The notes beneath the pieces are model-generated. The model did not search any database and had not been told where the DNA came from. It was given only the letters and a program-made list of their open reading frames with translations. A program made the position numbers and the translations under genes. Below, piece after piece: positions 22,071-63,280 of a DNA stretch of 64,000 bases. Positions within the stretch are counted from its first letter, which is position 1; each line of letters opens with the position of its first letter. The stretch comes from an uncultured Poribacteria bacterium (GTDB lineage: Bacteria; Poribacteria; WGA-4E; WGA-3G): positions 1,404,481-1,468,480 of the forward strand of contig OY282383.1 of the NCBI GenBank assembly GCA_958295855.1, in the 5' to 3' direction.

Positions 22071-22090
22071 ACAAAAAGACTGAAAACCAG

Positions 22091-28601: not shown

Positions 28602-28620
28602 TTGTTTTTTCTCCCATAAG

Positions 28621-28694: not shown

Positions 28695-28826
28695 GGCACC
28701 CGGATGTTTCTTGAAGGTGCGGTGCCAGATTTCTTTTGTATAATCGGGCAGCCGCGTTCCTCTCTAAACCATTCTATAGTAAAACTTAGAATCTGTCAAG
28801 TTACGAGCGAAGGTGCTCAGGGATTT

Positions 28827-28911
28827 TCGTCATGCCTTGCGGAGAATGCAGAATGCAAGACAGGTGTGACAATGCACTATAGCTCTCGTCGGAGGTTTCT
28901 GACGCAAGGTT
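28827..28911. repeat. D-family repeat
   Basis: ttttcgtcatgccttgcggagaatgcagaatgcaagacaggtgtgacaatgcactatagctctcgtcggaggtttctgacgcaagg. Confidence 0.8.
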
Positions 28912-28949
28912 TACCTTCTGAAGAGGGGAATGGCGCCCAGAGGTTGTTC

Positions 28950-29180
28950 CTAAAAAGGAGCGCGAGTACTTGAAATGATTCCATATTCTTTGCACTTCTC
29001 GATTATTACTTCTTCATTTTTGCAGTTTTCCAGAATGAAGTAATTCTCCTTCAAATCCCTGATCTTGTTAATAGAAATGCTCTTCTGATTCAGGTGTTCA
29101 ATGAGAATCGTCGGAACAAAATATAGTTCAAACGCGTTATCGTCTGAATGTAAGAAATAAAAAAGTTGTTCGCTAGTCAC
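28950..29180 (-). CDS. hypothetical small protein (AT-rich islet); N-terminus contributed by an E-repeat
   Basis: 76-aa ORF at about 35% GC. The first residues MTSEQLFYFL are encoded by the reverse strand of the E element. An upstream ~45-aa ORF at 29319..29185 may be the original 5' part of the same gene. Confidence 0.3.
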   Translation of the reverse strand: MTSEQLFYFLHSDDNAFELYFVPTILIEHLNQKSISINKIRDLKENYFILENCKNEEVIIEKCKEYGIISSTRAPF

Positions 29181-29193
29181 TCACAACTTGGGT
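29142..29193. repeat. E-family element (hairpin aagttgt...acaactt preceded by gtaagaaataaaaa)
   Basis: Read on the opposite strand it is hairpin + TTTTTTATTTCTT, an intrinsic-terminator shape. Confidence 0.7.
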
Positions 29194-29526
29194 GAATCCC
29201 AATGACAACATCTGAGGTTGTAGTGGATTGCGTACGCTGGCAGATGTACAGGAATATCACCATCTACCCGAATAATGCTTTCGCCAAAGTCGTTTATAAT
29301 TTCGGTAATGTTGTCCATGATTTGTTCGTATGTTACCCCTGCTTTGCAGGGGCTAATACCCTTTGCTCAAAACCGATCTGTGCCCCTGTTCTGTCCATTC
29401 CAACACCTTGTTTAGAGGACGCGGTTAGGTGTTGCGCCGCGATGCTGCACAAGAATTGTCCAAACTTCAGTAAATTATAGCACAATTGTCGAAAAAGTGC
29501 AATAATAGTATCAAAGTCTGGCAGGG

Positions 29527-29621
29527 TGGGCAGGCACAAGGCACTGCCCCTACAATGAAAGGTCAACCCAAATTCTGCGGATACGCGGCAGAATAGGCAG
29601 GCACAAGGCACTGCCCCTACA
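29527..29621. repeat. two B-family repeats; the distal one supplies the stop codon of the CPBP gene
   Basis: Copies at 29527-29554 and 29595-29621. The minus-strand stop TAG is the complement of the cta in ccccTAc. Confidence 0.8.
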
Positions 29622-30351
29622 TGATTAGATGTGAAATGCTGACAACTACCACATCCATTGTCATCGCGACGAGCCAGTGAATTGCGGCACCGTAAATAAA
29701 CGAGCGGGTTTCGAGAGCAAGAATCCCGAGCAACACCCCTGCAACAATTGAACCGAGTGCCTCCGGCAAAGGCTTGGAATAGTGCATTACCGCAAATGGG
29801 ATAGTCTGGATGAGGATGCTGTAATTTCCGAATCGCTTTTCTAACCCAAATAGCATGAACCCGCGGAAGAAGAATTCCCATGAAAACATGTAAACCCCGT
29901 ACGCGAGTTGGTACAGAAGGAAGGTTTGCCAACTATTAGCGACTACCTTGCAAAGCGGATACTTTGCGAGGAAGGGCCGATACACTATTACTGCTAAGAT
30001 GACAACCGGAATCATCAGTATCCATGCCGCTAACGTCACACTCCAGCCCAGTTTCTGATTTCCCAACCGAATTCCGTAATCACTCAGCCGCTGTCTTGTT
30101 CCAAATTTAGCAACAAGAGCAGGCACGAGTAACAAGGTGAGTGCGGTTGTCAAAAACCAGTAGTAGTATGAATAGCTTTCTGCCAGCGGGGCGTTTCCGA
30201 AATACTCAGCGAAATGGAGTTGGAAAAAACGCCGCCGGCTATAATATCGGTGCAACGTTAACAGAAGGGCAGAAGCGAGTAAAATTAACGTCGCTTGGCG
30301 TTCCCAACCCTGCAGATATTTTTCTCTTAATGTTTGGAGACGTGAATTCAC
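29617..30351 (-). CDS. CPBP-family intramembrane glutamic endopeptidase (CAAX protease/Abi-like)
   Basis: Motifs WEFFFRG, FAVMH and HWLVAMTMD in TM helices. Confidence 0.65.
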   Translation of the reverse strand: MNSRLQTLREKYLQGWERQATLILLASALLLTLHRYYSRRRFFQLHFAEYFGNAPLAESYSYYYWFLTTALTLLLVPALVAKFGTRQRLSDYGIRLGNQKLGWSVTLAAWILMIPVVILAVIVYRPFLAKYPLCKVVANSWQTFLLYQLAYGVYMFSWEFFFRGFMLFGLEKRFGNYSILIQTIPFAVMHYSKPLPEALGSIVAGVLLGILALETRSFIYGAAIHWLVAMTMDVVVVSISHLIM

Positions 30352-30409
30352 CTTGACATCCTGTCTGTTTTTAGGGTATTATACCGTGACTAGTAGAAAT
30401 TTGCAATTT

Positions 30410-30493
30410 TCGTTATTCCTTGCGGAGAATTCAGGGTGCAAGGGAGGTCTGACAATGCACTGTAGATGTCGTCGGATGTTTCTGACGCAAGGT
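30410..30493. repeat. D-family repeat
   Basis: ttattccttgcggagaattcagggtgcaagggaggtctgacaatgcactgtagatgtcgtcggatgtttctgacgcaagg. Confidence 0.8.
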
Positions 30494-30518
30494 TTACATT
30501 TGGTGGGGGCTATGCGTT

Positions 30519-31586
30519 ATGGAAGCGGAACGAGTGGGCAGGCACAAGGCACTGCCCCTAGAACAGATTCAGGGCCTCTTAATCATAAGACTGGCTCCGC
30601 TGGGTGAGACAGTTTTGACAACGCCTGTTATTCGTGCCTTGCGAAACCATTTCCCCGACGCGTATATCGCCTACATGGTGGCTCCCACGCGGGAGGATTT
30701 GGTGTCGGCAAACCCGCATCTGAATGAGGTGCTTACTTATCAGCCTTCGGTGCCGAAACTCATCTATCAAATTGCTCGGCGAAAATTCCAAATGGCGGTT
30801 GTGTTGCAACCAACCTTCCGTTTGGTGCTTCACACGTTTCTTGCCCGAATTCCGTTCCGCGTTGGGTTTGAAACGAACACCGGCGGCCGGAAACTGCTGA
30901 GTCTTGCCGTACCAAATAACACTGTTCAGCATGAAGCACAACGCTATCTTGATGTTGTTCGCGCGCTCGGCGTTGAGGCGGTGGATGATGAACCGGAAGT
31001 GTTCGTTAATAACGCGGGAAAAGCATGGGTTGACAACTTTCTCGCAGATTTGAACCTTAATGATAATTGTCCCTTAATCGGACTCAACCCGGGGGCTGCC
31101 ACATCCTACCGCCGGTGGCCGGATGGTAACTTTGCTCTGCTCGGAGACCTGCTTCAGAAAACGTACGACGCGCACATACTCATCACAACGGGCCCCCGGG
31201 AAGGAGAACTCGCATATCATGTGGCAAACCAGATGGCACATTCGCCCATTATTGTTAACAGTACAACACCCATGCAATTGGCCGCTCTCCTGCAACGGTG
31301 TCATCTCTACATCAGCAACGATACGGGACCCATGCACCTCAGTACTGCGGTAAAAACCCCAACGATTGCCTTGTTTGGTGCATCAAACCCAATTCAGTGG
31401 GGGCCACCGTGGGACAAACACACCGTTATTGCGCGCAAGGGGTGTGAGTTTATGAAGACGCTATCGCCCAAGGAGTGGGACGAACATGCCGCGATTGCAC
31501 GCCAGAATTTCGCGGTGCTTACCCCGGACATGGTTATCGCCGCAGTGGAGAAGTTAGAATGGAAAAACTCGAGCGCAACAGACTGA
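30519..31586 (+). CDS. glycosyltransferase family 9 (ADP-heptose:LPS heptosyltransferase-like); 5' end uncertain, a B repeat is embedded in the N-terminal region
   Basis: ILIIRLAPLGETVLTTPVIRAL, with downstream GT9 motifs (GLNPGA, TGPREGE, ISNDTGPMHL). The in-frame B repeat at 30536-30561 encodes GRHKALPL. Confidence 0.7.
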   Translation: MEAERVGRHKALPLEQIQGLLIIRLAPLGETVLTTPVIRALRNHFPDAYIAYMVAPTREDLVSANPHLNEVLTYQPSVPKLIYQIARRKFQMAVVLQPTFRLVLHTFLARIPFRVGFETNTGGRKLLSLAVPNNTVQHEAQRYLDVVRALGVEAVDDEPEVFVNNAGKAWVDNFLADLNLNDNCPLIGLNPGAATSYRRWPDGNFALLGDLLQKTYDAHILITTGPREGELAYHVANQMAHSPIIVNSTTPMQLAALLQRCHLYISNDTGPMHLSTAVKTPTIALFGASNPIQWGPPWDKHTVIARKGCEFMKTLSPKEWDEHAAIARQNFAVLTPDMVIAAVEKLEWKNSSATD

Positions 31587-31660
31587 GGGTGCATACCCCT
31601 GCTGGCAGGGGTAAATACCACTCGCAGAATTCAGATGAACAGTCCATCCAAAATTGTCTA

Positions 31661-33151
31661 ATGGATATCCGAGCTCGAATGCACAGGCAAACCCTCTTGC
31701 AAACGGTGGTGTCAGCTGTCTTTTTTGGACTACTTGTGCTTGCTACCCTGTTTATTGTTGATCGAATAATTCGCCTTCCTATACAGTTGTTTAGTATTAC
31801 TTGCCTAGTCATTTCTGGGGCAATGGTTGTTGGTATCTGCTTCAGTTTCAAACGTCGAAAGGATTTGCGATTTGTGGCGCGAACTGTGGACAGGGACATG
31901 GGGCTCAAGGAACGATTGAGCACGGCGTTTGAATTGATACAGGATGATACCCAAAGCGATTTAGCTCGACTCCAAATTCGAGATGCTGCTGCCACTGTTG
32001 CAACCCTAGCGGTAGCAAAAGTCAGTCCATATCGCATGCCTTTGTTACTGAAAGGGCTTCCAGTTCCGATTCTTTTCATTGCACTTTCTTTCGCGATACC
32101 GCGCTTCTACCACCTGCCGCAACTGCTTACTGCTGCTCAGCAGGAAGTGGTAGATATAGCTGTTGCAAACCTTGAAAAGGTACAGGTTAACAATCAGACG
32201 CTACAGGTGCAAATCCAAGAAACGGTTAAAAAGTTGAAGGAGGCAGAGGATGTTGACACTGCGCAGGCGCACCTCAGCAGTTTGAATAGGGACGTTCGCA
32301 AACAGAAATTGGAGCATAAGGCAGCAATTGAATCTGCTATTACCAAAGCGACACAAGCGACACAACGTTTTGGTGGCATGGATGCCAACCAACTTGCGGC
32401 AGAGTTGGAAGCGGTCATGGAACAACCTGAGATGCCGCCAGAACTCCAAGCTGAACTTGCGGAACTCTTTGCACGCTTGACTGAACGTCTGCCACAGGAT
32501 TCGCTAAGCGATTCACTAACTCAGATTCAGGGGAAGGCAGTTAGCCAAGAAACGTTGCAGGACATTGTTGATGTCCTCCGGCAGGCAGAAAAGTCGATGC
32601 AACTTGCACAACTGGAGGCACAGCTCACGGCAAGCCGAAAGGAATTAGCACTTGCGGGTATTGAAATACAACAAGCTTCGAGCGGGATTGCTAATAGTGA
32701 TGGAGCGCCTGGGCAAAACAGGGGCGATAGCGAAGTGCAAGGCACGCTTGAAGCGGCATCCGATTTTGCGTCGCAGCCAACAACGTCTACAGCCAATGAA
32801 GCGGAAGGTGATATGACAATAGAAGGAGATAACTTTATAGATTCCGGGCAACCCCCGCTAACCGGTGAAACAACCTCACCGTTACAGGTTGGCGGGACAC
32901 AGTTGACGCTCACAACGGAACCTTCACTTGATTCCCAACGCTTTTCGAGAGTTTTCACAGGTGAAGGGCAGGCACAAGGCACTGCCCCTACCGACGCGCC
33001 AGACTATCTTCCCTTCAGCCACGCTGTCCTCAACGCGAAACGCGCGTATGCGCAAGCTATGAACAACAACCGTATTCCGGTGCGGTATCAAACACAGATG
33101 AAAGCCTATTTGGAGGCAATTGCCACGGTTAATGAAAAACAGGGTGACTAA
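31661..33151 (+). CDS. hypothetical membrane-anchored coiled-coil protein
   Basis: Two N-terminal TM helices followed by a long Q/E/A-rich coiled coil. The start was chosen at MDIRARMH. An in-frame B repeat at 32965-32991 encodes GQAQGTAPT. Confidence 0.5.
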   Translation: MDIRARMHRQTLLQTVVSAVFFGLLVLATLFIVDRIIRLPIQLFSITCLVISGAMVVGICFSFKRRKDLRFVARTVDRDMGLKERLSTAFELIQDDTQSDLARLQIRDAAATVATLAVAKVSPYRMPLLLKGLPVPILFIALSFAIPRFYHLPQLLTAAQQEVVDIAVANLEKVQVNNQTLQVQIQETVKKLKEAEDVDTAQAHLSSLNRDVRKQKLEHKAAIESAITKATQATQRFGGMDANQLAAELEAVMEQPEMPPELQAELAELFARLTERLPQDSLSDSLTQIQGKAVSQETLQDIVDVLRQAEKSMQLAQLEAQLTASRKELALAGIEIQQASSGIANSDGAPGQNRGDSEVQGTLEAASDFASQPTTSTANEAEGDMTIEGDNFIDSGQPPLTGETTSPLQVGGTQLTLTTEPSLDSQRFSRVFTGEGQAQGTAPTDAPDYLPFSHAVLNAKRAYAQAMNNNRIPVRYQTQMKAYLEAIATVNEKQGD

Positions 33152-33815
33152 ACTTATCATCACTGCCGGCATTATTGCAGCAGTTTATTTTGTGTTGAGA
33201 CACTATGGTGTGACAGACACTATTCGGCTGGAAAACGTCCCGAAAATCAAAACATGGGTAGCGAGTTTTGGTACGATAGCACCCTTAGTCTACATTGGGC
33301 TCTACATTGTCTCGACTATCTTTTTTCTCCCAGGCACCCCGGTGACCGTGTTAGCCGGCATCGCCTTTGGTCCGCTTTGGGGTATTTTCTACGCGTCGAT
33401 AGCCTCTATTATTTCTGTTGCTATCGCTTTTCTTATTGCCCGTTACGCTGCACGGGGGCTCGTGGAAAGTTGGGTGAAGGACAATGCACAGTTCCGCGAA
33501 ATAGATGCCCAGGTTGAACAGCAAGGCTGGCGAATTTTGATGTTTACGCGCCTAGTCCCACTTTTTCCATTTAACCTTCAAAACTATGCCTACGGGCTCA
33601 CCAGTATCCGATTTTCCACGTTTGTGCTTGTTTCTGCTATCTTTATGTTACCGGGAACAATAGCATTGGTTCAACTTGGGGGCGCGTTTATCAGTGGTGA
33701 GGGGAATATTTGGAAGACGATGTTCTATCTCGGTGTTGCAGGTGTTCTTATTCTTCTCGTCTCCCTCATTCCAACTTTTTGTCGTTCCTTGCGGAGAATT
33801 GAGAAGGCAAGATAG
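33132..33815 (+). CDS. TVP38/TMEM64 (DedA-like) family membrane protein
   Basis: FFLPGTPVTVLAGIAFG and F-R--P-FPF motifs of PF09335. The C-terminal 12 residues and the stop are encoded by a D repeat. Confidence 0.7.
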   Translation: MKNRVTKLIITAGIIAAVYFVLRHYGVTDTIRLENVPKIKTWVASFGTIAPLVYIGLYIVSTIFFLPGTPVTVLAGIAFGPLWGIFYASIASIISVAIAFLIARYAARGLVESWVKDNAQFREIDAQVEQQGWRILMFTRLVPLFPFNLQNYAYGLTSIRFSTFVLVSAIFMLPGTIALVQLGGAFISGEGNIWKTMFYLGVAGVLILLVSLIPTFCRSLRRIEKAR

Positions 33816-33858
33816 GTCTAACAATGCACTATAGCTCTCGTCAGAGGTTTTTGACGCA
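33778..33858. repeat. D-family repeat
   Basis: gtcgttccttgcggagaattgagaaggcaagataggtctaacaatgcactatagctctcgtcagaggtttttgacgca. Confidence 0.8.
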
Positions 33859-33887
33859 TTTTTTTTGGACTTGAAAAAAGTTGGTGG

Positions 33888-50381: not shown

Positions 50382-50436
50382 AGGCTTTTTGCGAGTGTCA
50401 TCCCAAGGACGTATTGCGCGTGTGGATGCACGGGGA

Positions 50437-50506
50437 AGGGCAGGCACAAGGCACTGCCCCTCCTACGAACCCGCTGAAATGCACGGCGCATAAGTAAGAA
50501 ATAAAA
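50437..50506. repeat. B repeat + partial E element
   Basis: gggcaggcacaaggcactgcccc ... gcgcataagtaagaaataaaaaaa. Confidence 0.7.
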
Positions 50507-51909: not shown

Positions 51910-52692
51910 ATGCGTGGCGATTTTGAAGCCTATCTCAATGATTCATTTCGTGATGAAAATGGAAGGCTGGATTTAGCGGCATTATTAACATTGGAAGATG
52001 AAGCCGCCATGGATGTAGCAGTCATCATGCCCAATACCCAACCCGATCCGCAAAATGATGAACTTGCCGATGCTATTCGCGGAAACCCGCGTGCCCTCGG
52101 CTGCGCGCTCGTGCATCCGACAGAACCAGAACCGGTTGAACAAGTCAAGTTGGCGGCGGAGGTGTGGGGAATGCGCGGTATTAAGCTCATGCCTGCTGTT
52201 CACAACTACAATGTGGACGACCCCATCGTACGCCCTGTCGTTGAATCCGCACGTGACTATGGACTTATCGTTTCAATTCACTCCGGACCTAACAATTGCC
52301 ATCCCAACCGCATCGGCACCGTTGCAAGTTGGGTGCCAGAAACGCCTGTCATCATGGATCACATGGGGTTTCCTGATGACTTAGATGCTGCCATCTCTGT
52401 AGCCAAGGCAAACAAGAATATCTCACTTGGAACGACTATCTTACGTTTTCATCGCCGCTGGGGGACGGATGCAAACACCGTTGTTCCTACAGAGGTAAAA
52501 GATGCAGTGGATGCGCTCGGCCCGGAACAGATCGTCTTTGGCTCTAATTTGCCGGAATACCGTCCTATTCAGGTGATTAATGCCCTCAAGCGGTTGGAAC
52601 TCGGCGATGATGCAGAGGCACTAATTTTCGGCGATAACCTCGCGCGCATCTATGGATTAGAAGGTTTTTCGTCATTCCTTGCGGAGAATTGA
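51910..52692 (+). CDS. amidohydrolase-2 (TIM-barrel metal-dependent hydrolase) family protein; C-terminal 8 aa and stop encoded by a D repeat
   Basis: HxH-less amidohydrolase_2 pattern (MDHMGFPD, FGSNLPE). The protein ends GFSSFLAEN*, read from tttttcgtcattccttgcggagaattga. Confidence 0.6.
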   Translation: MRGDFEAYLNDSFRDENGRLDLAALLTLEDEAAMDVAVIMPNTQPDPQNDELADAIRGNPRALGCALVHPTEPEPVEQVKLAAEVWGMRGIKLMPAVHNYNVDDPIVRPVVESARDYGLIVSIHSGPNNCHPNRIGTVASWVPETPVIMDHMGFPDDLDAAISVAKANKNISLGTTILRFHRRWGTDANTVVPTEVKDAVDALGPEQIVFGSNLPEYRPIQVINALKRLELGDDAEALIFGDNLARIYGLEGFSSFLAEN

Positions 52693-52925
52693 GAATGCTT
52701 GGTAGGTCTGGCAATGTACTGTAGCTCTCGTCGGAGGTTTTTGACGCAAGGTTTTTTAACTTTCCTTGCGGAGAATTGAGAATGCAAGATAGCTCTTACC
52801 ATTCTTTGTAGCTCTCGTCGGAGGTTTTTGACGCAAGGTTTTTTAACTTTCCTTGCGGAGAATTGAGAATGCAAGATAGCTCTTACAATTCTTTGTAGCT
52901 CTCGTCGGAGGTTTTTGACGCAAAG
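52667..52925. repeat. three tandem D-family elements (period ~88 nt)
   Basis: D1 52667-52751, D2 52761-52839 and D3 52848-52925. The minus-strand ORF 52650..52874 in the track is an artefact of this array. Confidence 0.85.
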
Positions 52926-52953
52926 TTTACGTTACGTTTAAAATGGTGGCAAA

Positions 52954-54063
52954 ATGAAAAGAACGCCCCTTTATGAGGTTCACAAAGCCCTCAACGCCAA
53001 ATTTACCCAATTCGGTGGATGGGACATGCCGCTCCAATATAGCAGTATTGTTGAGGAGCATCTGGCTGTCCGAACCACTGCTGGTTTGTTTGACTTGTCG
53101 CACATGGGTGAGATTGAGGTCTGCGGACACGGGGCGAACGAGTTGGTGCAAAAACTCAGCACCAACGACGTGAACCGTTTAACCGATGGGCGTGTGTTGT
53201 ATACACTCCTTTGTAAGGAGACAGGCGGAATAGTTGATGATATTCTCATTTACCGCCGCGCCGATAACTACTATATGCTGGTTGTCAATGCTGCCAACAT
53301 TGAAAAAGATCTGGCATGGGTGGAAGCCCATAATGACGAGGGCGCGGAAGTAAGAGATGTAAGCGAGGATACAACCCTCATCGCGCTACAGGGGCCCGCA
53401 GCGATGGACATTCTGCGTCCCTTGGCTTGCTATGGCACACGGAGTGTGCCTGCTACTTTTGGGTTTGCTAGCGGCGAGGTAGCAGGTATCCCGACCGTGA
53501 TTTCACGAACCGGTTACACGGGGGAAGTCGGTTTTGAGTTGTATGTAAACGCGCGTTTGAATAAATGGGGTGCAAAACGTTTGTGGGATACGCTTTATCC
53601 TATAGTGACGGCGGCGGGCGGGCAACCTGTCGGACTTGGTGCACGCGACACACTACGACTTGAAGCTGGACTTCGCCTCTACGGCATGGACATGGACGAA
53701 AGCACGACACCGTTTGAAGTTGGGCTTGGTAGGTTTGTCAAATTTAAGAACCGGCAATTTATCGGCAAGGCTGCACTTCTTGCACAGAAACGGAAGGGAG
53801 CTCTTGCGAGGCAGATGGTAGGATTTCAGATGCTTGGCCGCGCGGTCGCGCGTGCTGGCCATCCTGTCTATCAAAAAGGTGAACACATAGGCGCTGTGAC
53901 GAGCGGTGCGCCTTCACCGAGTCTTAAATGCAATATCGGCTTTGCCTCCGTCGAAAGCAGTAGGCGGGCAGGCACAAGGCACTGCCCCTACAATGAAAAC
54001 ATCGATGTAGAAATTCGTGGGAAGATGCACCCTGCGAAAATCGTAGAAATTCCTTTTTTATAG
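52954..54063 (+). CDS. gcvT: glycine cleavage system aminomethyltransferase T, carrying in-frame C-repeat and B-repeat insertions
   Basis: GcvT motifs throughout. Inserts: ACYGTRSVPATFGF (C repeat, 53425-53460) and [11 protein letters not shown] (B repeat, 53966-53991). Confidence 0.85.
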   Translation: MKRTPLYEVHKALNAKFTQFGGWDMPLQYSSIVEEHLAVRTTAGLFDLSHMGEIEVCGHGANELVQKLSTNDVNRLTDGRVLYTLLCKETGGIVDDILIYRRADNYYMLVVNAANIEKDLAWVEAHNDEGAEVRDVSEDTTLIALQGPAAMDILRPLACYGTRSVPATFGFASGEVAGIPTVISRTGYTGEVGFELYVNARLNKWGAKRLWDTLYPIVTAAGGQPVGLGARDTLRLEAGLRLYGMDMDESTTPFEVGLGRFVKFKNRQFIGKAALLAQKRKGALARQMVGFQMLGRAVARAGHPVYQKGEHIGAVTSGAPSPSLKCNIGFASVESSRRAGTRHCPYNENIDVEIRGKMHPAKIVEIPFL

Positions 54064-54066
54064 ATT

Positions 54067-54228
54067 TCGTCTTTCCTTGCGGAGAATTCAAGTGGCAAGA
54101 TAGGTCTGACGTTGCACTGTAGATGTCGTCGGAGGTTTGTGCTGCAAGAAAAAAGAGGTTTGAATGCAGGTCGCATAAGTAAGAAATAAAAAAGTTGTTC
54201 ATTAAAATTCACAACTTGGGTATGAACA
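54067..54228. repeat. D element followed by E element
   Basis: tcgtctttccttgcggagaattcaag...gtcgtcggaggtttgtgctgcaag ... gcataagtaagaaataaaaaagttgttcattaaaattcacaacttggg. Confidence 0.8.
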
Positions 54229-54254: not shown

Positions 54255-55993
54255 ATGAAACACAACTCGTCTCTGATGAAGGGCTTTATGGTATTACTCT
54301 CCCGGCCTTCGGAGACCGGGGGTATAAAACTTTTATTGTCTTTCCTAATTTTGGGACTTCTCATTTCGATCTCACGTCCAGAGGTTTACTCACAGACAGT
54401 TTCCGAAAGAGCCTCAGCATCTACAGTACGATTGGTCGCGTTTTTCGGTGGGGGTAGCGGGTTTTTCGTGGCACCAGACAAAATTGCAACGAATTTTCAC
54501 GTCGCCGCATCTGTCGAAAGGGGTCCGATTTTCGCAAAAGTGGTTGACAACGAGACTATCTGGGCAGTAGAAGGTGTCATGGCATTTGACGTTAAGAACG
54601 ACCTCGCCATCCTAAAAATCGCAGGGGCCGGCACGCCGCTTCCTATTGGTGACAGTGATATGCTCCAAATAGGGTTCGGTGCAGTGGCGTAAAATGTAAT
54701 CAAATCTATACAAATGTAATCAAATCTATCTGAAAGAGGTAGTCTTATCTGACAGATACAGAGGATGGTGAATGGAGCGTGAGTAGCGTTTCCTACTGCA
54801 CGATGCGAAGTGGCACGCTGAACAGGCCTACCCCCCGTGAAAAAGGTATTTACCCTGCAAAGCAGGGCGAATACCACCTGCGGATGAAGAGTTGGCAATG
54901 CGACTGCAGAAAGGTATTATCCCCGCTTTGCGGGGTAAATACCGATGCCGACGGTGGAGGTGGCGATAAGACCTACGTGAGACCCCTAGCCAACAACGTC
55001 TCACTACAGCATCAGAGACGACACGAACAATCGTTACGACACGTCGCGGACAGCTTAGCCGAGACGTCAAACGCCTGTGGATGCTATGTAAGCCCTACAC
55101 TGGTAGGCGATGGCAGATGAAGCAGGAAGTGTGGCAACTGATGGAAGAACCTGTTAGATTTGAACAGGTTTGACTAGAAATGTATAAGTCCCACAGAGCG
55201 GGAGTCTGTTTATTTGGCGGGTTACCCTTATCTAGGAAAATATAGGGTTACGGAGGGCATTATAGAGGATATCCGGCAGAGCGATAAATGGATACGGACG
55301 ACAACCGAAGCGTATCCGGGAAACAGCGGCGGTCCCGTGCTAAACAGTAAAGGGGAAGTCATTGGTATTCACGTCGGCCACGGCTATGACGCGCGTCCCT
55401 CAAACGCGCTCAAGGCATTGCTTGCTGCTTCTACGTCTACAGAGCCCTTAGCACAGTGGCAGAAACGTGCACTTGTTCGGGCGTATGTCTACGTCAAACG
55501 AGGCAGAAGAAAATATGATGATGGGGACGCTGCTGGGGCAATTACTGACTTGGATAAAGCGATCAAACTTAACCCGAACGATGCCGAAGCCTACAAATAT
55601 AGAGCGAAGGCAAAGGCGAAACTTGGCAACCTTGTAGGAGCGATAGCGGACTATAATCAAGCGATTAAACTTAAATCTGATGATGACTATGCTTATAGTC
55701 ACCGTGGAATGGCAAAGTCTGAACTTGGTGACCATGATGGTGCGATAGACGATCACGACAAAGCCATTCGACTCAGCCCTAAAAGTGCCTATTTCTACAA
55801 TAATCGCGGAGAAGCAAAGCGTTCCGTAGGCGATTATGCAGGGGCAGTAGAGGACTATAATCAAGCCATCAAACTAAATCCTAAGTATTCCACTGCTTAC
55901 TACCATCGCGGGCTTGCAAAGGAGGCACTTGGGCAGCAGGCGGCAGCGAAAATTGATTTTGAGAAGGCAAAGGCTTCCTTGCCCGGCCCGTGA
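54255..55993 (+). pseudogene. trypsin-like (S1) serine protease fused to TPR repeats, interrupted by a ~520-bp insertion
   Basis: His (TNFHV) and Asp (NDLAIL) lie in the 5' ORF 54255-54692. Ser (GNSGGP) plus about six TPR units lie in the 3' ORF 55214-55993. The two parts are in different frames. Confidence 0.6.
54693..55213. mobile_element. ~520-bp non-coding insertion flanked by 5-bp direct repeat TGGCG (target-site duplication) inside S1 protease gene
   Basis: gcagTGGCG|taaaatg ... gtttattTGGCG|ggttaccc. Removal restores ...IGFGAVAGYPYLGKY..., a protease-consensus junction. The insert contains two A hairpins and a 17-nt direct repeat, and has no ORF with a recognisable motif. Confidence 0.55.
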
Positions 55994-56005: not shown

Positions 56006-56395
56006 ATGTTTCCACAAAACTTAAAATACATGGAAAGCCATGAATGGGCTAGGCAAGAAGGTGACATCGCTACTATCGGTATCAGCGACTATGCCCAATC
56101 CGAAATTCAGGATATTGTCTACGTCGAATTGCCTGAAGTTGGCACTGAAGTCGTACAGCAGACAGAGTTCGGGGTGATAGAGTCTGTGAAAGCGGCATTT
56201 GATCTCTACGCCCCTGTCAGTGGGGAAGTCATTGCTGTCAACGAATCACTCCTTGATGCCCCGGAACAGGTCAATGAGTCTCCGTACGATAAGGGCTGGT
56301 TGCTCAAAATCAAAATGGTGGCCTTGGACGAACTTGACGTGCTTCTTGATGCCGATAGTTATCGTCATTCCTTGCGGAGTAATCAGAACGTATGA
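56006..56395 (+). CDS. gcvH: glycine cleavage system H protein; last ~11 aa and stop contributed by a D repeat
   Basis: Lipoyl-lysine motif ESVKAA. C-terminus ...YRHSLRSNQNV* is read from cgtcattccttgcggagtaatcagaacgtatga. Confidence 0.85.
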   Translation: MFPQNLKYMESHEWARQEGDIATIGISDYAQSEIQDIVYVELPEVGTEVVQQTEFGVIESVKAAFDLYAPVSGEVIAVNESLLDAPEQVNESPYDKGWLLKIKMVALDELDVLLDADSYRHSLRSNQNV

Positions 56396-56443
56396 TGGTT
56401 CTTACAATACTTTGTAGCTCTCGTTGGAGGGTTCTGACGCAAA
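56361..56443. repeat. D-family repeat
   Basis: See gcvH. Confidence 0.8.
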
Positions 56444-56461
56444 CAAGAGAGGTGGTTACTG

Positions 56462-59431
56462 TTGGAAAATTCTTTCTTCTATCGACACATAGGTCCGCGT
56501 CCAGAAGACATTGAGTTGATGTTAACAACGCTCGGTTATTCGTCAATGGCATCTTTTATTGAAGACGTTGTGCCGGCAGATATTCGTCTAGCATCTCCCC
56601 TCAGTTTATATGTTGCCCACTCTCCCGATTCCGATGGGGAGAGGAAGGGTAGGCACAAGGCACTGCCCCTACCAGAATTTGAAATGCGGGCAGCCTTGGC
56701 GCAGCTTGCTTCTCAGAACCAGATCTACCGTTCCTTTATCGGCATGGGCTACGCTAACTGCATCGTGCCGCCGGTCATCCAACGAAACATCCTTGAGAAT
56801 CCCGGATGGTATACCCAATACACTCCCTATCAAGCCGAAATTTCACAGGGCCGCTTAGAAGCATTGCTAAACTTCCAAACAATGGTTATTGACTTAACCG
56901 GGCTCCCTATTGCTAATGCTTCCCTCCTAGACGAAGCAACAGCCGCCGCTGAAGCCATGGGAATGTGCATCGCAAGAGGGCAGGCACAAGGCACTGCCCC
57001 TACCGAGCAACAGACAGGTTTCCGTAACTTCTTTGTTTCAGAAACCTGTCATCCACAAACAATTGCCGTTTTGCAAACGCGTGCCGAACCTCTCGGGATT
57101 CAATTAGACATTGGTAACCATCAAAACGTGGATTTCGAGGCACCTATCTTGGGAGCTATCGCGCAATACCCGGCTACGGATGGTGCAGTTTACGATTACC
57201 ACGAGTTCGCCAAACGGGTGCATGCCGCTGGTGGCTTATTTGCTATTGCCACGGACCTATTAGCACTGACACTCCTGAAACCGCCTGGTGAGGTTGGTGC
57301 GGACATCGCTATCGGCAGTGCCCAAAGGTTTGGTGTCCCCCTCGGCTACGGAGGGCCCCACGCTGCGTTTCTCTCTACGCGCGAGGAACTCAAACGCCGA
57401 ATACCCGGACGGATTGCAGGGGTTTCTCAAGATGCAACGGGCAAACCTGCCATCCGCTTGGCACTCCAAACGCGAGAGCAACATATCCGGCGTGAAAAAG
57501 CGACCAGCAACATCTGCACAGCGCAAGTACTCCTCGCTGTCATGGCAGGGATGTATGCAGTCTATCACGGGCCCACGGGGCTTAAGCGAATTGCGGAACG
57601 CATCCAGAAACTCACCAACACCCTACGCACAGGGCTTGAGAAATTGGGTTACTCTACTGGGGATGCGCCTTGCTTTGATACGGTTCGGGTAGGGGTTTGC
57701 TACGGAAACCCACGGAGTGTGCCTGCTACTTTTGCTGCGGAACTGCTGGCTGCTGCACGGGCGAGAGGGATAAATCTTCGCGCGATTGGGGCAGGCACAA
57801 GGCACTACCCCTACAACATCGGGATATCGCTGGACGAAACAACGACGCTGGGGGATGTTGAGGAGTTGCTTGGTATTTTTGAGGATGCGAGGGATTTTCG
57901 GTGTAGTAGGGATGTTTGCTACGGAAACCCACGGAGTGTGCCTGCTACTTTACAACGAAAAACGCCCTATCTGACCCATCCTGTTTTCAATAGTTACCAC
58001 TCTGAAACCGAGATGCTTAGGTATATCCACAGACTCCAAACTAAAGATCTCTCCTTAGTCAACGCTATGATACCGCTCGGTTCCTGTACCATGAAACTCA
58101 ATGCTACGGCAGAGATGGTGCCGGTAACATGGCCAGGGTTCAGCGAGCTTCACCCATTCGCACCGCAGGAGCAAGCATCCGGTTACCACGTTCTGTTTGA
58201 ACAACTGGAGGCGTGGTTAGCGGAGATAACGGGATATGGGGGTATCTCATTGCAACCGAATGCTGGCTCACAGGGCGAATATGCGGGGCTGTTAGTCATC
58301 CGCAAATACCACCAAAGCCAAAACGAAGCCCATCGCAATGTCTGCTTAATACCCACATCTGCTCACGGTACAAACCCTGCCAGTGCAGTCATGGCGGGGA
58401 TGAAAGTCATCGTCGTTGCATGCGACACAGAAGGCAACGTTGACCTGGTGGATCTACGGAAGAAAGCTGAGCGTTATAGTGAAACCCTCGCCGCTGCCAT
58501 GGTTACTTATCCTTCAACACATGGTGTATTTGAAGAACAGATTCGCGAGATATGCGATATCGTTCATCAATATGGTGGGCAAGTCTACATGGACGGTGCC
58601 AATCTCAATGCACTCGTTGGACTCAGTCGTCCAGCAGATATCGGCCCTGATGTGTGCCATCTCAACCTCCACAAAACGTTCTGCATCCCCCATGGTGGCG
58701 GTGGCCCGGGGATGGGGCCTATTGGAGTCAAGGCACATCTAACCGATTTTTTACCGACGCATCCACTCGTCACCGTTGGGGGTAAGTCTGGAATCGGTGC
58801 TGTTTCAGCGGCCCCGTGGGGGAGCCCCGGGATTTTACCTATTTCTTGGGCGTATATTGCGATGATGGGAGCAGAGGGGCTCAAATCGGCGACAGAGGTT
58901 GCTATTCTCAACGCCAACTACATCTCCAAACAGTTAGCCCCCCACTATCCGATCCTTTACACAGGTAGGAAGGGGTTAGTTGCCCACGAATGTATTGTAG
59001 ATCTGCGTCCCTTTAAGAGAACGGCTGATGTAGATGTAACCGATGTTGCAAAACGGTTGATGGATTATGGGTTTCACGCACCAACTGTATCCTGGCCGGT
59101 TCCCGGAACAATGATGATTGAACCCACAGAGAGTGAATCTAGAACTGAACTAGATCGGTTCTGCGCTGCGCTTGTTGCGATCCGCTCTGAGATTGCCGAG
59201 ATTGAGACAGGGAAAGCAGATGGACGAGACAACGTTCTCAAAAATGCACCTCACACCGTAGAAACGGTCACGCAAACAGATTGGCCCCACTCCTACTCGC
59301 GCGAAAAGGCTGTGTTTCCAAAGCCTTGGGTGCGCGATGCTAAGTTTTGGCCTGCGGTGGCACGTATTAATGAAGTCTACGGGGACAGGAATCTTTTGTG
59401 TGCCTGTCCACCCCTTGATGACTATTTTTAG
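56462..59431 (+). CDS. gcvP: glycine dehydrogenase (decarboxylating), single-chain P protein, with five in-frame repeat insertions
   Basis: Full-length GcvP motifs. Inserts:
- B at 56646-56672 (GRHKALPLP)
- B at 56977-57000 (GQAQGTAPT)
- C at 57694-57733 ([12 protein letters not shown])
- B at 57788-57816 ([10 protein letters not shown])
- C at 57914-57951 ([13 protein letters not shown])
Start codon likely TTG at 56462. Confidence 0.85.
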
Positions 59432-59594
59432 TCGTTCCTTGCGGAGAAATGAGAATGCAAGACATGTCTGACAATGCCTTATAGATCTCGTCGGAGGTTT
59501 CTGACGCATTTTTGTTATTCCTTGCGGAGTAATCAGGTTGCAGGATAGTTCTGACGTTGCACTGTAGATGTCGTCGGAGGGTTGTGCTGCAAGG
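59432..59594. repeat. two adjacent D-family repeats immediately after the gcvP stop
   Basis: Copies at 59432-59509 and 59514-59594. Confidence 0.8.
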
Positions 59595-59595
59595 C

Positions 59596-59676
59596 CTACC
59601 TAAGAGTCCTCTGACGAGATTTCTAATAGATTTCTAACTACAGCGGAAAGCATGGTACTCCGCAAGGTATGTTAAA
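59596..59676 (+). repeat. G element: conserved ~85-nt leader shared by trkA and trkH
   Basis: taagagtcctctgacgagat...aactacagcggaaagcatggtactccgcaaggtatgttaaaaa. The second copy is at 61457-61540. Both end about 5-20 nt before the start codon. Confidence 0.6.
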
Positions 59677-59679
59677 AAG

Positions 59680-61095
59680 ATGAAAGCAATAATCATAGGG
59701 GCGGGGGAGGTGGGTTTTCATACAGCGAAACTGCTAACTACCGAAGCGAACGATGTCGTTCTCATCGATGAATCCGTTGAAGCCTGCAACCGAGTCAGTG
59801 AACAATTAGATTTGCAGACTTTACGCGGTTCTGGTGCCTCCCCGCGTCTTCTCAAAACAGCCGGTATTGACGAGGCTGGGCTCCTCATTGCGGTTACGAA
59901 CAGCGATGAAATTAACATGCTTGCTTGTCAGATAGCTGACCGGTACAGCGTTGGCACCAAGATTGCGCGCGTCTCAAATACTGACTACTTTTCATCTGGA
60001 AGCGGACTCACGCCCAAGGATTTCGGCATAGACCTCTTGGTTAATCCTGAACAGCTTTGTGTAGCCGAATTTGTTCGCCTTTTAAAGATACCTGAAGCGA
60101 AAGAGATTGTTGAATTTGAGGGAGGCACGGTACAACTTGTCTCTTTTCGCATCAAAAAGACTAACCCCTTGGTTGGAAAATCTCTTGCTGAGTTAGATAA
60201 CAGTGGACTTTTAGCCGATATTCGATTTGCCGCAATTAGCAGGCGAGGGGGTGGTTTAACGGCACGGCGGAGCGTGCCTACTACTTTCGCAAACAGGTAC
60301 ATTATCATTCCTAGAGGCACAGATATTTTGGAACAAGGAGATGATGTATTCGTTATTGGTAGCGCGTTGGCAGTCGAACAGTTGCTGCGCCTGAACGGAA
60401 TCATGTTTAACGAATACCTTGACCGGGTCATTATTGTTGGTGCGAGCCCCATCGGCATCCAACTCGCCCGCACCCTAGAACAAAACAACACTGATGTTAA
60501 ACTCATTGAAGCCAGTCAAGAGCGGGCAGAATTGGCCTCGCGGCTCTTGAAACGGACGACTGTCTTACACGGCGACTATCTCCAATTCAGGCTTCTTGAG
60601 GAAGCAGGAGTCCTTGATGTGAACGGGTTTGTCTCTGTCACAGGTGACGATGAAAACGATATTATGGCGTGCATGACAGCGAAAGAGAACGGTGCACAGC
60701 GCGCCCTCGCCCTGATTCAGCAGCCACGCTACCTGCCGCTGTTGGCACGGATTCCACGGCTTGATGGGGTAGTCAGTCGGCACCTCTCCGTGGTCAGCAA
60801 CATCCTCCGGCTCATTCGCCGTGGGAATATTGTTTCTGTTGCGTCGCTCCATGGCATAGATGCAGAAGTTATTGAAATTGTCGCAGGTATCAACGCGAAA
60901 ATTGTTCACAAGGAGCTTCTGTCATTCAAAACGAAATTTCCAGAAAACGCTTTTATTGGTGCAGTCCTCCGGCGCGACAAACTCATTATTCCGAACGGGC
61001 AGTCTGTTATCCAACCCGCAGATCGTGTTATTGTCTTTAGTATGCCTGATGCAATTCCTATTGTGGAAGATCTGTTCGCGGAACGCAGAATATAG
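59680..61095 (+). CDS. trkA: Trk potassium uptake system NAD-binding protein TrkA (two RCK-N/RCK-C pairs) with in-frame C-repeat insertion
   Basis: GAGEVG and GASPIG Rossmann motifs. Insert GGLTARRSVPTTFAN at 60253-60290 sits in the first RCK_C, just before the IIPRGTD strand. Confidence 0.85.
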   Translation: MKAIIIGAGEVGFHTAKLLTTEANDVVLIDESVEACNRVSEQLDLQTLRGSGASPRLLKTAGIDEAGLLIAVTNSDEINMLACQIADRYSVGTKIARVSNTDYFSSGSGLTPKDFGIDLLVNPEQLCVAEFVRLLKIPEAKEIVEFEGGTVQLVSFRIKKTNPLVGKSLAELDNSGLLADIRFAAISRRGGGLTARRSVPTTFANRYIIIPRGTDILEQGDDVFVIGSALAVEQLLRLNGIMFNEYLDRVIIVGASPIGIQLARTLEQNNTDVKLIEASQERAELASRLLKRTTVLHGDYLQFRLLEEAGVLDVNGFVSVTGDDENDIMACMTAKENGAQRALALIQQPRYLPLLARIPRLDGVVSRHLSVVSNILRLIRRGNIVSVASLHGIDAEVIEIVAGINAKIVHKELLSFKTKFPENAFIGAVLRRDKLIIPNGQSVIQPADRVIVFSMPDAIPIVEDLFAERRI

Positions 61096-61111: not shown

Positions 61112-61196
61112 TTTTCGTCATTCCTTGCGGAGAATTGAGAATGCTTGGTAGGTCTGGCAATGTACTGTAGATCTCGTCGGAGGTTTCTGATGCAAC
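61112..61196. repeat. D-family repeat
   Basis: ttttcgtcattccttgcggagaattgagaatgcttggtaggtctggcaatgtactgtagatctcgtcggaggtttctgatgcaa. Confidence 0.8.
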
Positions 61197-61252
61197 CTCA
61201 ATTAGGAGGAAGTACTCTACAACTTGTAAGAACCCCGATTTTGAGACAAAGT

Positions 61253-61400
61253 AAATACCCCGCAAAGCGGGGCGAATCCCACCGCGGAAAACTCGGAGCA
61301 GAATGCACGTCGCATAAGTAAGAAATAAAAAAGTTGCTTGCTAATCACGCGCAACTTGGGCGCAAAGGGTGTTAGCCCCCGCTTTGCGGGGGATATCACC
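61253..61400. repeat. A variant + E (GC-stem variant) + A variant
   Basis: ccccgcaaagcgggg ... gcataagtaagaaataaaaaagttgcttgctaatcacgcgcaacttggg ... cccccgctttgcggggg. Confidence 0.75.
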
Positions 61401-61456
61401 TACTCGCCGCAAAACTGAATTGACGAAAGCTCTCGTCGGAGGTTTTTGATGCAAGG

Positions 61457-61540
61457 TTTACATAAGAGTCCTCTGACGAGATCTGTAAGGGTTTTTGAAC
61501 TACAGCGGAAAGCATGGTACTCCGCAAGGTATGTTAAAAA
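61457..61540 (+). repeat. G element, second copy (leader of trkH)
   Basis: See 59596-59676. Confidence 0.6.
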
Positions 61541-63077: not shown

Positions 63078-63243
63078 TTTTCGTCATTCCTTGCGGAGAA
63101 ATCAGCAAATGTAAGAAATAAAAAAGTTGTTCATTAAAATTCACAACTTGGTATGAAACCCCTGCTTTGCAGGGGCAAATACCATTGGCAAGAGAGGTCT
63201 AACAATGCACTATAAATCTCGTCGGAGGTTTTTGACGCAAGGT
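63078..63243. repeat. composite nested repeat D-left + E + A + D-right (same architecture as 3563-3737)
   Basis: tcgtcattccttgcggagaaatcagcaaatgtaagaaataaaaaagttgttcattaaaattcacaacttgg ... cccctgctttgcaggggcaaataccattggca ... tctcgtcggaggtttttgacgcaagg. Confidence 0.85.
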
Positions 63244-63280
63244 TACAGAATAAATGCCAAGGGAGGCACCGCTCTACTTT

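Follow-up and report, generated by a model that had tools for sequence, protein, structure and literature searches.

REP sequences carry a GT(A/G)G head followed by a palindrome. REP and REPIN elements (mobilised by RAYT/Y1 transposases; PMC2817692, PMC3116915) are extragenic, often lie just 3′ of genes, and occur in arrays and inverted pairs with a strong strand bias. Other small bacterial repeats—ERIC/IRU, Correia/NEMIS, RUP/BOX/SPRITE, and BRE—fuse with gene ends (Delihas 2011, PMC3184786; PMC10969869), and clustering and mutual insertion have been described for the pneumococcal repeats. Rickettsia palindromic elements (RPEs; ~150 bp) are selfish and survive in coding genes with translation intact, being read through in frame as an internal peptide. 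In Neisseria, the end of the REP2 repeat, which contains a start site and promoter-associated elements, gives downstream genes their 5′-UTR and start region.

Here, we describe D, a dispersed repeat in a 64-kb stretch of Poribacteria DNA (referred to as the window). As a repeat family D is new, but it belongs to a known kind of element, behaves in a documented way, and involves no new mechanism. Like bacterial MITEs and other small repeats, it is short, non-coding, multi-copy, mainly intergenic, and often clustered or nested; it differs in its lack of sequence similarity (Rfam, phage, and plasmid collections), in its weak inverted termini, in that no target-site duplication was found, and in its host, a member of an uncultivated sponge-symbiont phylum. 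D resembles REP sequences in its extragenic location, often just 3′ of genes, and in its arrays, inverted pairs, and strong strand bias. Moreover, its 3′ half, which consists of (G/A)TAG with an invariant TAG, a 4-nt gap, and an 18-nt hairpin, is reminiscent of the GT(A/G)G head and palindrome. However, at 87 nt D is much longer than a REP, it is not a symmetrical REP pair, and it lacks the long-hairpin architecture of a REPIN (z ~0), long-range pairing being seen only between D(+) and D′(-) across spacers. Two co-resident repeats, B and E, fit the head rule exactly (GTAG head plus palindrome), yet they occur within coding sequence (gcvP, gcvT, and others), an uncommon place for a REP. In this they behave like RPEs, translation remaining intact. 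D, unlike RPEs, terminates translation, so that a gene would tolerate it nowhere but at its very 3′ end. Reversed D termini next to start codons are comparable to the Neisseria REP2 arrangement, although D itself has no ATG.

A profile search identified 13 full copies of D (85-89 nt) in the window, all but one on the + strand (P = 0.003), along with about twelve partial or diverged copies, including split and truncated ones (Table 1). Pairwise identity among the full copies ranges from 68 to 98%, and subfamilies are present. No copy has an ORF of its own; D is thus small, non-coding, and dispersed, as are MITEs. On its forward strand, the consensus contains a stop codon in each frame, approximately 9, 13, and 19 codons from the 5′ end, and most individual copies likewise stop all three forward frames, while the reverse frames are frequently open. 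The inverted termini are short and imperfect: CCTTGCG/CGCAAGG (7 nt) plus a looser match of ~18 nt (GTnAnnCCTTGCGnnAGAA), with D-type termini being of the TTTTCGTCATTCCTTGCGGAG type. All copies retain an invariantly placed 7-bp hairpin (CGTCGGAGGTTTCTGACG), in which substitutions turn G-C pairs into G-U or A-U. T-runs flank both sides in roughly seven of twelve copies, as read by eye in the alignment. We considered the T-run as an insertion target or target-site duplication and rejected this, since the forward unoccupied sequences lack it; the 5′ T-run is consequently part of D, and the A-runs that precede the start codons of scpA and trkA were there ancestrally. Comparing filled with unoccupied sites yielded no clean target-site duplication, and several filled sites show a replacement (insertion plus deletion) instead of a simple insertion. 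A sister family with D-like termini and a different core occupies 21748-21829, 23465-23542, and 5444-5522.

Table 1 Copies of the D repeat and associated features (positions within the window)
Feature	Position	Strand	Remarks
Split D	3562-3740	+	similar to the split copy at 63078-63244
Split reversed D at scpA	18580-18704	-	terminus adjoins scpA ATG at 18704
D in scpB 3′ coding region	20098-20183	+	supplies FLLFLAE and TAA
Old diverged reversed D	20289-20389	-	adjoins PALP ATG at 20391; orthologous to L008 5681-5764
D in PALP to AP-endonuclease spacer	21991-22077	-	only full young copy on the - strand
Old reversed D	23389-23464	-	orthologous to L008 8419-8502, 73% identical
D in spacer adjoining - strand genes	28824-28911	+	present in strain L009
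D between two - strand genes	30407-30494	+	antisense to both
D at VTT/TVP38	33777-33860	+	same insertion in ~97%-identical strain L009
Amidohydrolase gene (Amidohydro_2)	51910-52692	+	ATG start at 51910 as in orthologues (MRGDFEAYLNDS)
D unit 1 of array	52666-52752	+	encodes FSSFLAEN and TGA of amidohydrolase; subfamily of the 61112 copy
D units 2, 3 of array	52754-52839, 52841-52926	+	subfamily differs from unit 1
D after gcvT	54065-54149	+	1 nt 3′ of gcvT stop (54061-54063); other repeat type at 54163-54220
D at gcvH-gcvP	56360-56444	+	replaces last 9 gcvH codons and first gcvP codons
gcvP-trkA spacer, all repeats	59426-59677	mixed	D 59426-59509 (+), D 59509-59594 (+), D′ 59601-59677 (-)
trkA-trkH block	61112-61539	mixed	D 61112-61198 (+), D′ 61458-61539 (-), hairpin repeats between
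Split D after trkH	63078-63244	+	begins 14 nt 3′ of trkH stop; two other repeat types nested

Rfam returned no family for the whole window at gathering thresholds and none for 52600-53000 at E <= 1, a tRNA/tmRNA scan gave no match, and plasmid and phage collections searched by blastn contained no match to a D-D-D′ spacer. Exact D patterns (two per collection) had 0 matches in representative-genome and JGI metagenome collections, which speaks to the absence of the young subfamily only, given that diverged copies such as those in the related contig L008 would escape such scans. There is no transposase or RAYT gene within the 64-kb window, and neither the window nor the public genome and metagenome collections, scanned by exact pattern, yielded a full-length autonomous relative of D. 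Literature searches found no description of repeats or MITEs in Poribacteria.

The original prediction held that repeat elements supply the stop codons and C-terminal residues of at least six genes. We locate the stop codon within D for five—the amidohydrolase, gcvH, VTT/TVP38, gcvP, and scpB—the last of which had not been listed. A random 86-nt element would cover the stop of a long ORF with p ~0.075, and we observed this at five of ten independent D sites (binomial P = 4e-4). In the three genes proposed to end in D, the stops indeed lie inside it (amidohydrolase TGA, 52690-52692, in unit 1 of the array; gcvH TGA, 56393-56395; VTT/TVP38 TAG, 33813-33815). Comparison with orthologues also bore out that C-termini have been rewritten: for all five proteins, similarity stops exactly at the D boundary, and tails of 1-11 residues have been added at the cost of few native ones. 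Of about 60 amidohydrolase orthologues inspected, nearly all end in IYGL plus 0-4 residues, to which the window protein adds FSSFLAEN as its last 8 residues. Similarly, GcvH ends in RHSLRSNQNV versus QARIEAEHA in orthologues, and the VTT/TVP38 protein in CRSLRRIEKAR versus ...LRKRQANL or ...LRKYQTKL. In scpB (TAA at 20118-20120), FLLFLAE forms the new tail and the native one of ~23 residues is gone, the old tail and stop persisting as a decayed remnant downstream of D (~20205-20250). The gcvP stop (TAG, 59429-59431) falls in the first bases of D, leaving GcvP without ESDN. The predicted repeat-encoded tail peptides read ...IYGLEGFSSFLAEN, ...DADSYRHSLRSNQNV, and ...IPTFCRSLRRIEKAR.

Three stops had been described as abutting a D; this applies to gcvT (1 nt before the repeat) and to gcvP, whose stop is inside it, but not to trkA, where 16 nt separate the stop (61093-61095) from the D that follows. 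The assignment of the CPBP protease stop to a B element was correct: this Rce1-like gene (29617-30351, - strand) takes its stop from a B-type hairpin repeat (29592-29627), whose GTAG head contains the TAG.

Between the amidohydrolase gene and gcvT, Tandem Repeats Finder delimits an array at 52661-52928 with a period of 87, 3.1 copies, and 90% matches. The proposal that its three D units reflect local amplification holds for units 2 and 3, which are 98% identical and, judged by their sequences, fit a recent tandem duplication. Unit 1, however, has 82% identity to these two and 95% to the copy at 61112, arguing that it represents a separate insertion from another subfamily. An exact-sequence look-up for other contigs found neither the window amidohydrolase nor its GcvT on record.

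To what extent D has altered operon architecture became apparent from relatives. Unoccupied sites were found at eight junctions (in L002, L005, L007, L008, L011, and L012), with contigs running continuously through the junctions in L002 and L007 (88-89% nucleotide identity), L005 (75%), L011, and L012. In relatives the junctions overlap or nearly abut, whereas the same genes are 66-462 nt apart in the window. Thus, gcvH and gcvP are spaced by 66 nt versus -8 in relatives (an 8-nt overlap), gcvP and trkA by 248 nt versus 19 in L005, trkA and trkH by 462 nt versus 0 in L005 (contiguous, TAAATG), and scpB and PALP by 270 nt versus -1 in relatives. N-termini are affected as well: GcvP and TrkH lost theirs and that of ScpA is changed. 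The gcvP start is now a TTG at 56462 behind a ribosome-binding-like motif (GAGAGGTGG), and trkH has lost its 7 initial ancestral codons to the trkA-trkH block. The two forward copies in the gcvP-trkA spacer belong to different subfamilies, and the left terminus of the diverged D′ that follows them adjoins the trkA ATG at 59680. Reversed D-type termini stop 1-2 nt short of the start codons (ATG) of scpA (18704), PALP (20391), and trkA (59680), and probably also of an Elm1-like gene (2390). The notion of recurrent insertion at gene 3′ ends is therefore upheld by the five stops inside D and too narrow in that D-family termini adjoin start codons too. A general rule whereby the left terminus always faces a gene was dismissed: it applies on the stop side of 9/10 spacers, on the start side of only 5/9, and is confounded with the strand bias.

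The same D insertions occur in independent contigs (L001, L009, and L010) and hence are not assembly artefacts. Two old copies are common to the window and L008 at orthologous sites; L011 and L012, which are more distant, lack them, and this distribution dates the family. For the one old copy measured, the 73% identity to its L008 orthologue is similar to that of four-fold degenerate sites in flanking genes (58-74%); thus, there is no sign of constraint. Nesting is frequent: two B hairpins have invaded the old copy at 20289-20389 in the window, a sister-family element (23465-23542, + strand) is inserted at the left terminus of the copy at 23389-23464, and a 39-nt hairpin repeat sits in the 3′ hairpin of the copy at 30407-30494 in strains L009 and L010. 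All three forward frames of B are open, and B/E hairpins replace sequence rather than merely adding it (26 nt for 8 nt at 32963-32998 relative to L009). Between ~97%-identical strains, the smaller repeat families are polymorphic for presence, arguing that small repeats are currently changing in the population; no such polymorphism was seen for D among the closest strains, its three comparable copies being fixed.

The reading we favour (probability of roughly 75%) is that D is a selfish, non-autonomous repeat, mobile in the manner of MITEs and REPs, which occurs only in one subclade of Candidatus Poribacteria and has recently multiplied in the window lineage. The subfamilies, nested insertions, unoccupied sites in relatives, C-termini that diverge at D, and roughly neutral divergence support this reading. 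Against it count the absence of a transposase from the window, the weak inverted termini, the replacements in place of clean target-site duplications, the fixation of D among the closest strains, and the persistence of the strand bias beside - strand genes. D could instead be an RNA element of 3′-UTRs or intercistronic regions that selection maintains, a function also suggested for REP/BIME, ERIC, and Correia elements: a terminator, a site of RNase processing, or a barrier to 3′-exonucleases that stabilises the upstream mRNA. The 12 of 13 full copies on the + strand, that of most window genes, and the 7-bp hairpin kept throughout would agree with such a role, as would the three of 13 copies that pass a lenient terminator scan, each followed by a T-run. 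Whole spacers bounded by inverted D termini also fold better than their shuffles (gcvP-trkA, z = -3.0; trkA-trkH, z = -3.9). Single D units, however, do not (z +0.4 to -1.4 for six sequences folded), nor does the triple array (z = -0.9); the centroid fold of D pairs its termini, yet the unit as a whole is no more stable than shuffled sequence. The hairpin has 7 pairs (3-4 G-C, one G-U) without any compensatory double change, and CAAGG precedes any T-run, so D does not form the GC-rich hairpin with an immediate U-run of an intrinsic (Rho-independent) terminator. Accordingly, the scan as a whole is not enriched (19 matches versus 14.9 ± 4.1 expected), and the suggestion that D acts as a stable terminator or stabiliser hairpin was not borne out. 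With z near zero and no compensatory pairs, we discarded a structured-RNA reading of single units. Termination would, moreover, harm the operons in which many of the copies lie (gcvT-H-P, trkA-trkH), close relatives do without D at the same junctions, the old copy diverged at a neutral rate, and Rfam has no match, making a selected RNA function unlikely.

Quite unlikely, too, is that D serves as a junction element, with the forward orientation providing stops in three frames, the reversed purine-rich terminus (CTCCGCAAGGAA..CGAAAAA-ATG) a ribosome-binding-like leader, and inverted pairs looping the spacer out of the mRNA so that stop and start come together. Such a role would account for the reversed termini just before the scpA, PALP, trkA, and probably Elm1-like start codons, for the three-frame stops of most copies, for the PALP arrangement being kept in L008, and for the outer termini of the gcvP-trkA and trkA-trkH spacers pairing together in minimum-energy folds. 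Yet this geometry is automatic once elements fill a junction of 0-20 nt, four spacers present the right end of D and not its left terminus to the start codon, AAGGA is ~13 nt from the ATG and thus beyond the usual ribosome-binding-site distance, and the neutral divergence of the old copy again argues against a function. Finally, D might never have transposed: recombination or gene conversion could have carried it from one intergenic sequence to another, or it might be an artefact of metagenome assembly. Segment replacement at several filled sites, the lack of an evident target-site duplication, and the like behaviour of B/E hairpins point in this direction; but D occupies many unrelated loci whose dissimilar flanks offer no substrate for homologous recombination, its subfamilies and nesting are typical of mobile repeats, and recurrence of the same insertions in independent contigs and ~97%-identical strains speaks against an artefact. 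We regard this last explanation as very improbable.

For D as a selfish mobile repeat, we infer that a trans-acting enzyme transposed the copies and that selection produced their positional pattern. The ancestral operons would have been compact, with stop and start codons overlapping or a few bases apart, such that an 87-nt insertion would be non-lethal only at junctions and within the last few codons. Given its stops in all three forward frames, a D landing at a gene end would cost few residues and add a short tail; such insertions would survive, whereas those further upstream would be removed by selection. The five replaced C-termini, the moved or new starts of gcvP, trkH, and scpA, and the loss of overlapping stop/start junctions would be the consequences. 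Tandem arrays may have arisen by two routes, insertion of new copies at the terminus of a resident one and occasional local duplication of a unit. The + strand bias persists beside - strand genes (28824 and 30407), which selection for stop supply would not by itself account for; the copy at 28824-28911, adjoining - strand genes, is not at a co-oriented 3′ end.

It is conceivable, albeit doubtful, that D, B, E, and other small repeats have been shaped by selection for compatibility with translation, with D as a junction element, B open in its three forward frames, and inverted D pairs keeping neighbouring genes coupled. If true, a symbiont genome of free-living size would tolerate invasion of its core operons and enzymes by repeats at a density described so far mainly for Rickettsia.

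Small repeats can thus reshape the ends of proteins, start codons, and the junctions within operons, here in a sponge symbiont that is uncultivated and ecologically dominant, and relatives with unoccupied sites allow this remodelling to be resolved base by base. In such genomes, gene callers will mistake tails encoded by repeats for genuine protein sequence, as in P0121, which public collections already contain, and will call split genes and wrong N-termini; short-read assemblies likely under-represent lineages with so many repeats. The locus provides strain-typing markers for Poribacteria, and gcvT-H-P, trkA-trkH, and scpA-scpB, with versus without spacers of 66-462 nt, constitute a natural experiment on lost translational coupling.

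The tandem array at 52661–52928 (period 87, 3.1 copies, 90% matches in Tandem Repeats Finder) is made of a unit that is one member of a dispersed repeat family, D (consensus TTTTCGTCATTCCTTGCGGAGAATTGAGAATGCAAGATAGGTCTGACAATGCACTGTAGCTCTCGTCGGAGGTTTCTGACGCAAGGTTT). With a profile built from the D copies and run over the 64-kb window, we recovered 13 full copies—12 on the + and one on the − strand—as well as split, deleted and diverged copies and short fragments; members of a sister family have both D termini in common with D and a different core. The window has 49% G+C and a positive GC skew throughout, and its + strand carries almost all genes. A tRNA scan of the window found none and an Rfam search no family.

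Repeat copies (D copies from the profile), gene ends inside D (stop codons read directly from the frames) and spacers widened relative to related Poribacteria loci
Feature	Window position	Strand	Detail
Full D copies (starts)	20098, 28824, 30407, 33777, 52666, 52754, 52841, 54065, 56360, 59426, 59509, 61112	+	
Full D copy	21991–22077	−	
D copies split by other, nested repeats	3562–3740, 63078–63244, 18580–18704		
D copy with internal deletion	18480–18535		
Diverged D′ copies (2)	59601–59677, 61458–61539	−	
Old diverged D copies (2)	20289–20389, 23389–23464	−	
Sister family	21748–21829, 23465–23542, 5444–5522		
Amidohydrolase end	51910 (true start, ATG)–52692		GLEG + FSSFLAEN, TGA, D frame 1
scpB end	19428–20120		SLDE + FLLFLAE, TAA, D frame 1 (variant copy)
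VTT/TVP38 end	33120–33815		IPTF + CRSLRRIEKAR, TAG, D frame 2
gcvH end	56006–56395		DADSY + RHSLRSNQNV, TGA, D frame 2 (variant copy)
gcvP end	59431		...DDYF, TAG in first bases of D
gcvH–gcvP spacer			66 nt; relatives −8
gcvP–trkA spacer			248 nt; relatives 19
trkA–trkH spacer			462 nt; relatives 0
trkH–pdxH spacer			about 190 nt; relatives 3
scpB–PALP spacer			270 nt; −1 in L011, L012
Amidohydrolase–gcvT spacer			261 nt; relatives 68 or 110

That the repeats supply stop codons, as the original prediction held, was borne out by direct reading of the frames: five genes (amidohydrolase, scpB, VTT/TVP38, gcvH and gcvP) stop inside D, and the − strand Rce1-like (CPBP) protease gene takes its stop from a B-type hairpin repeat, whose GTAG head contains the TAG. 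Of the stops said to abut D, that of gcvP lies within it and that of gcvT 1 nt before it, but 'abutting' is too strong for trkA (16 nt upstream); the trkH stop lies 14 nt upstream of a split D. Each of the three forward frames contains a stop in most D copies, at ~9, 13 and 19 codons, and the reverse frames are often open. A real stop codon is covered at five of ten independent D sites, against a random expectation of ~7.5% per site (P = 4e-4).

Comparison of the C-termini with orthologues lacking the repeat indicates that the protein tails do derive from D. Nearly all of the 60 closest amidohydrolase orthologues inspected have 242–254 residues and end in ...ARIYGL plus 0–4 residues, the closest (96% identity) terminating in ...GLEG; VTT orthologues end in ...LRKRQANL or ...LRKYQTKL, and the D tail is common only to P0121, a same-species protein in public collections. 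ScpB orthologues continue for ~23 residues past ...ELPSLDE. In syntenic DNA of related Poribacteria loci (nucleotide identity to the window 88–89% for L002 and L007, 87% for L008, 75% for L005; L011 and L012 more distant), D sites are unoccupied with contigs continuous across the junctions, and similarity to the window stops at the D boundary in every case. Past the D copy in scpB, comparison with L008 still picks out a decayed remnant of the former 3′ coding sequence and its stop, direct evidence that D inserted into the coding 3′ end.

Gene starts are affected as well. In L002 and L005, gcvH and gcvP share 8 nt (ATGCCTGA); in the window D has displaced nine codons from the end of gcvH along with the opening codons of gcvP, whose start is now TTG 56462, preceded by GAGAGGTGG. 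In L005 trkA is joined directly to trkH (TAAATG), whereas a 430-nt repeat block holds them apart in the window, where trkH begins at former codon 8; the scpA start codon is likewise shifted. Reversed D-type left termini (CTCCGCAAGGAA..CGAAAAA) lie 1–2 nt upstream of the ATG of four + strand genes (2360–2390, 18673–18704, 20365–20391, 59654–59680), the one upstream of the PALP gene also being kept in L008. Such a terminus may serve as a ribosome-binding-like leader; alternatively, its position may merely follow from the filling of a very short junction.

The idea that D forms a stable, terminator-like hairpin was not supported by folding. Six D sequences were folded singly: the consensus and the 33775–33870 stretch, each read forward and reversed, plus the 52748 and 59423 copies. 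None folded better than shuffles (z +0.4 to −1.4), nor did the triple array (z = −0.9). The D alignment supports a 4-bp and a 7-bp hairpin only and contains no compensatory change on both sides of a pair. Three copies pass a lenient terminator scan by the 7-bp hairpin and a T-run, and overall matches are not enriched (19 versus 14.9 ± 4.1). Spacers with inverted D termini at both ends do fold better than shuffles (z = −3.0 and −3.9), their outer termini pairing together, which may reflect mere inverted repeats.

The triple array had been ascribed to local amplification, and one such step stands: identity between units 2 and 3 is 98%. Unit 1, however, shares only 82% identity with them and 95% with the copy at 61112; rather than a single threefold amplification, the array therefore comprises at least two independent arrivals at one spot and one recent local duplication. 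The 59426/59509 pair combines two different subfamilies (73% identity). These sequences point to insertion beside resident copies, as does a sister-family element whose insertion point coincides exactly with the end of one old D copy (23464/23465).

Homologues of window proteins carry the name Candidatus Poribacteria, a sponge-symbiont phylum, and an identical gcvH occurs in ENA assembly ERZ19489113. Exact-pattern scans found no D in representative genomes or JGI metagenomes, and the profile found none in L002, L005, L007, L011 or L012. In L008, each of the two old window copies has a diverged, reversed counterpart at the orthologous site, and L011 and L012 show an overlapping TAATG junction at the scpB–PALP site. 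From this distribution, the origin of D falls within one subclade of Poribacteria, followed by expansion in the lineage of the window. The one old copy measured (23389–23464) is 73% identical between window and L008, consistent with decay at the neutral rate (four-fold degenerate sites of flanking genes, 58–74%).

Three comparable D copies are common to the window and the same-sample strains L009 and L010 (~97% identical), among which smaller hairpin repeats are present or absent, one of them nested in a D copy and another within an ORF. The polymorphic elements are ~38-nt GGTAT..CCCCTGCTTTGCAGGGG..ATACC hairpins and a 41-nt AATGTAAGAAATAAAAAAGTTG.. element (window 29328–29365, 29147–29187, 30479; L010 6375–6411); in both L009 and L010, D30407 has one of these hairpins nested in its own 3′ hairpin. 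The B hairpin at 32963–32998 in ORF 31475–33151 is absent from L009 (about 9853); 26 nt stand in place of 8 (net +18 nt, frame kept), a replacement and no clean insertion. L009 4104–6123 (window 28620–29235) also holds, between the acetyl-CoA synthetase and Rce1-like genes, an N6/N4 DNA methyltransferase (430 residues) and a 171-residue ORF. Both are missing from the window, which makes this an indel between strains that affects a possible restriction-modification gene.

The best-supported reading of these sequence comparisons is that D would be a selfish, non-autonomous mobile repeat of MITE/REP type. With almost no intergenic space in the genome, it would persist only at gene junctions and in last codons, and its three-frame stops would make gene-end insertions cheap. 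A single-strand (RAYT or IS200-like) mechanism is a candidate that several features would fit: D's 3′ half, which combines (G/A)TAG with a hairpin; the co-resident B/E repeats with exact GTAG-plus-palindrome form; and a chromosome-strand bias that holds even beside − strand genes. A GTAG head with a palindrome behind it also characterises the REPs that RAYT transposases mobilise. The 64-kb window contains no transposase gene; comparison of filled and unoccupied D sites found no clean target-site duplications, and several sites resemble replacements. Read on the − strand, B (20258–20369, 29525–29627, 50435–50470 and other copies) and E begin with GTAG and then a palindrome, with similar hairpins in L005 and L008; the + strand carries 11 of the 14 B copies, those beside − strand genes among them. 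L005, which lacks D, carries an IS605 OrfB/TnpB-type gene (19321–20412) just downstream of syntenic pdxH, with no window counterpart.

Smaller repeats also lie within genes. GcvP (989 residues; 953 in L005) contains five in-frame segments matching small hairpin repeats (56644–56679, 56975–57010, 57786–57821, 57695–57732, 57914–57951), with B (GGGCAGGCACAAGGCACTGCCCCTAC) translated in all three frames and a second repeat translated twice as a 12-residue peptide. gcvT holds one of each (53422–53459, 53963–53998); its E takes the place of native sequence of equal length and adds nothing. These resemble Rickettsia palindromic elements. A short divergent TrkA segment (GGGLTARRSVPTTF; HASNNGHPINNG in L005; ~60250–60290, coordinates estimated from the protein alignment) is similar to the E-encoded peptide RSVPATF, and a repeat may thus have decayed here within the gene. 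Between gcvT and gcvH, L002 has a single 558-residue Trypsin_2 + TPR gene; within window 54255–55993 the matching parts (54255–54674, 55202–55969) are in different frames around a ~527-nt block that includes a 20-mer tandem repeat and hairpin repeats. Probably this gene has been split or inactivated. Window 5747–10041 contains four ORFs (7643–8476, PAP2_3; 5747–6697, 6654–7295 and 8641–10041 without Pfam match) with long internal direct repeats (300, 299, 241 and 110 nt, 94–98% identity) and perfect tandem arrays of a 12-mer (TTGAACAAGGTA; 6480–6509, 7030–7107) and a 45-mer (9352–9441).

D has no sequence match to ERIC, Correia, RUP/BOX, BRE, Rickettsia repeats or Neisseria REP2, and the papers on Poribacteria that were retrieved make no mention of such repeats. 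ERIC, Correia, RUP/BOX and BRE lengthen gene 3′ or 5′ ends, nest mutually and cluster (PMC3184786, PMC10969869); in-frame repeats within Rickettsia genes and start regions carried by Neisseria REP2 are documented. D is therefore a new family with known behaviour. The wider picture—several repeat families, five in-frame gcvP insertions and a split protease gene—may be worth a separate finding, and the unoccupied sites in relatives document this repeat behaviour unusually well.
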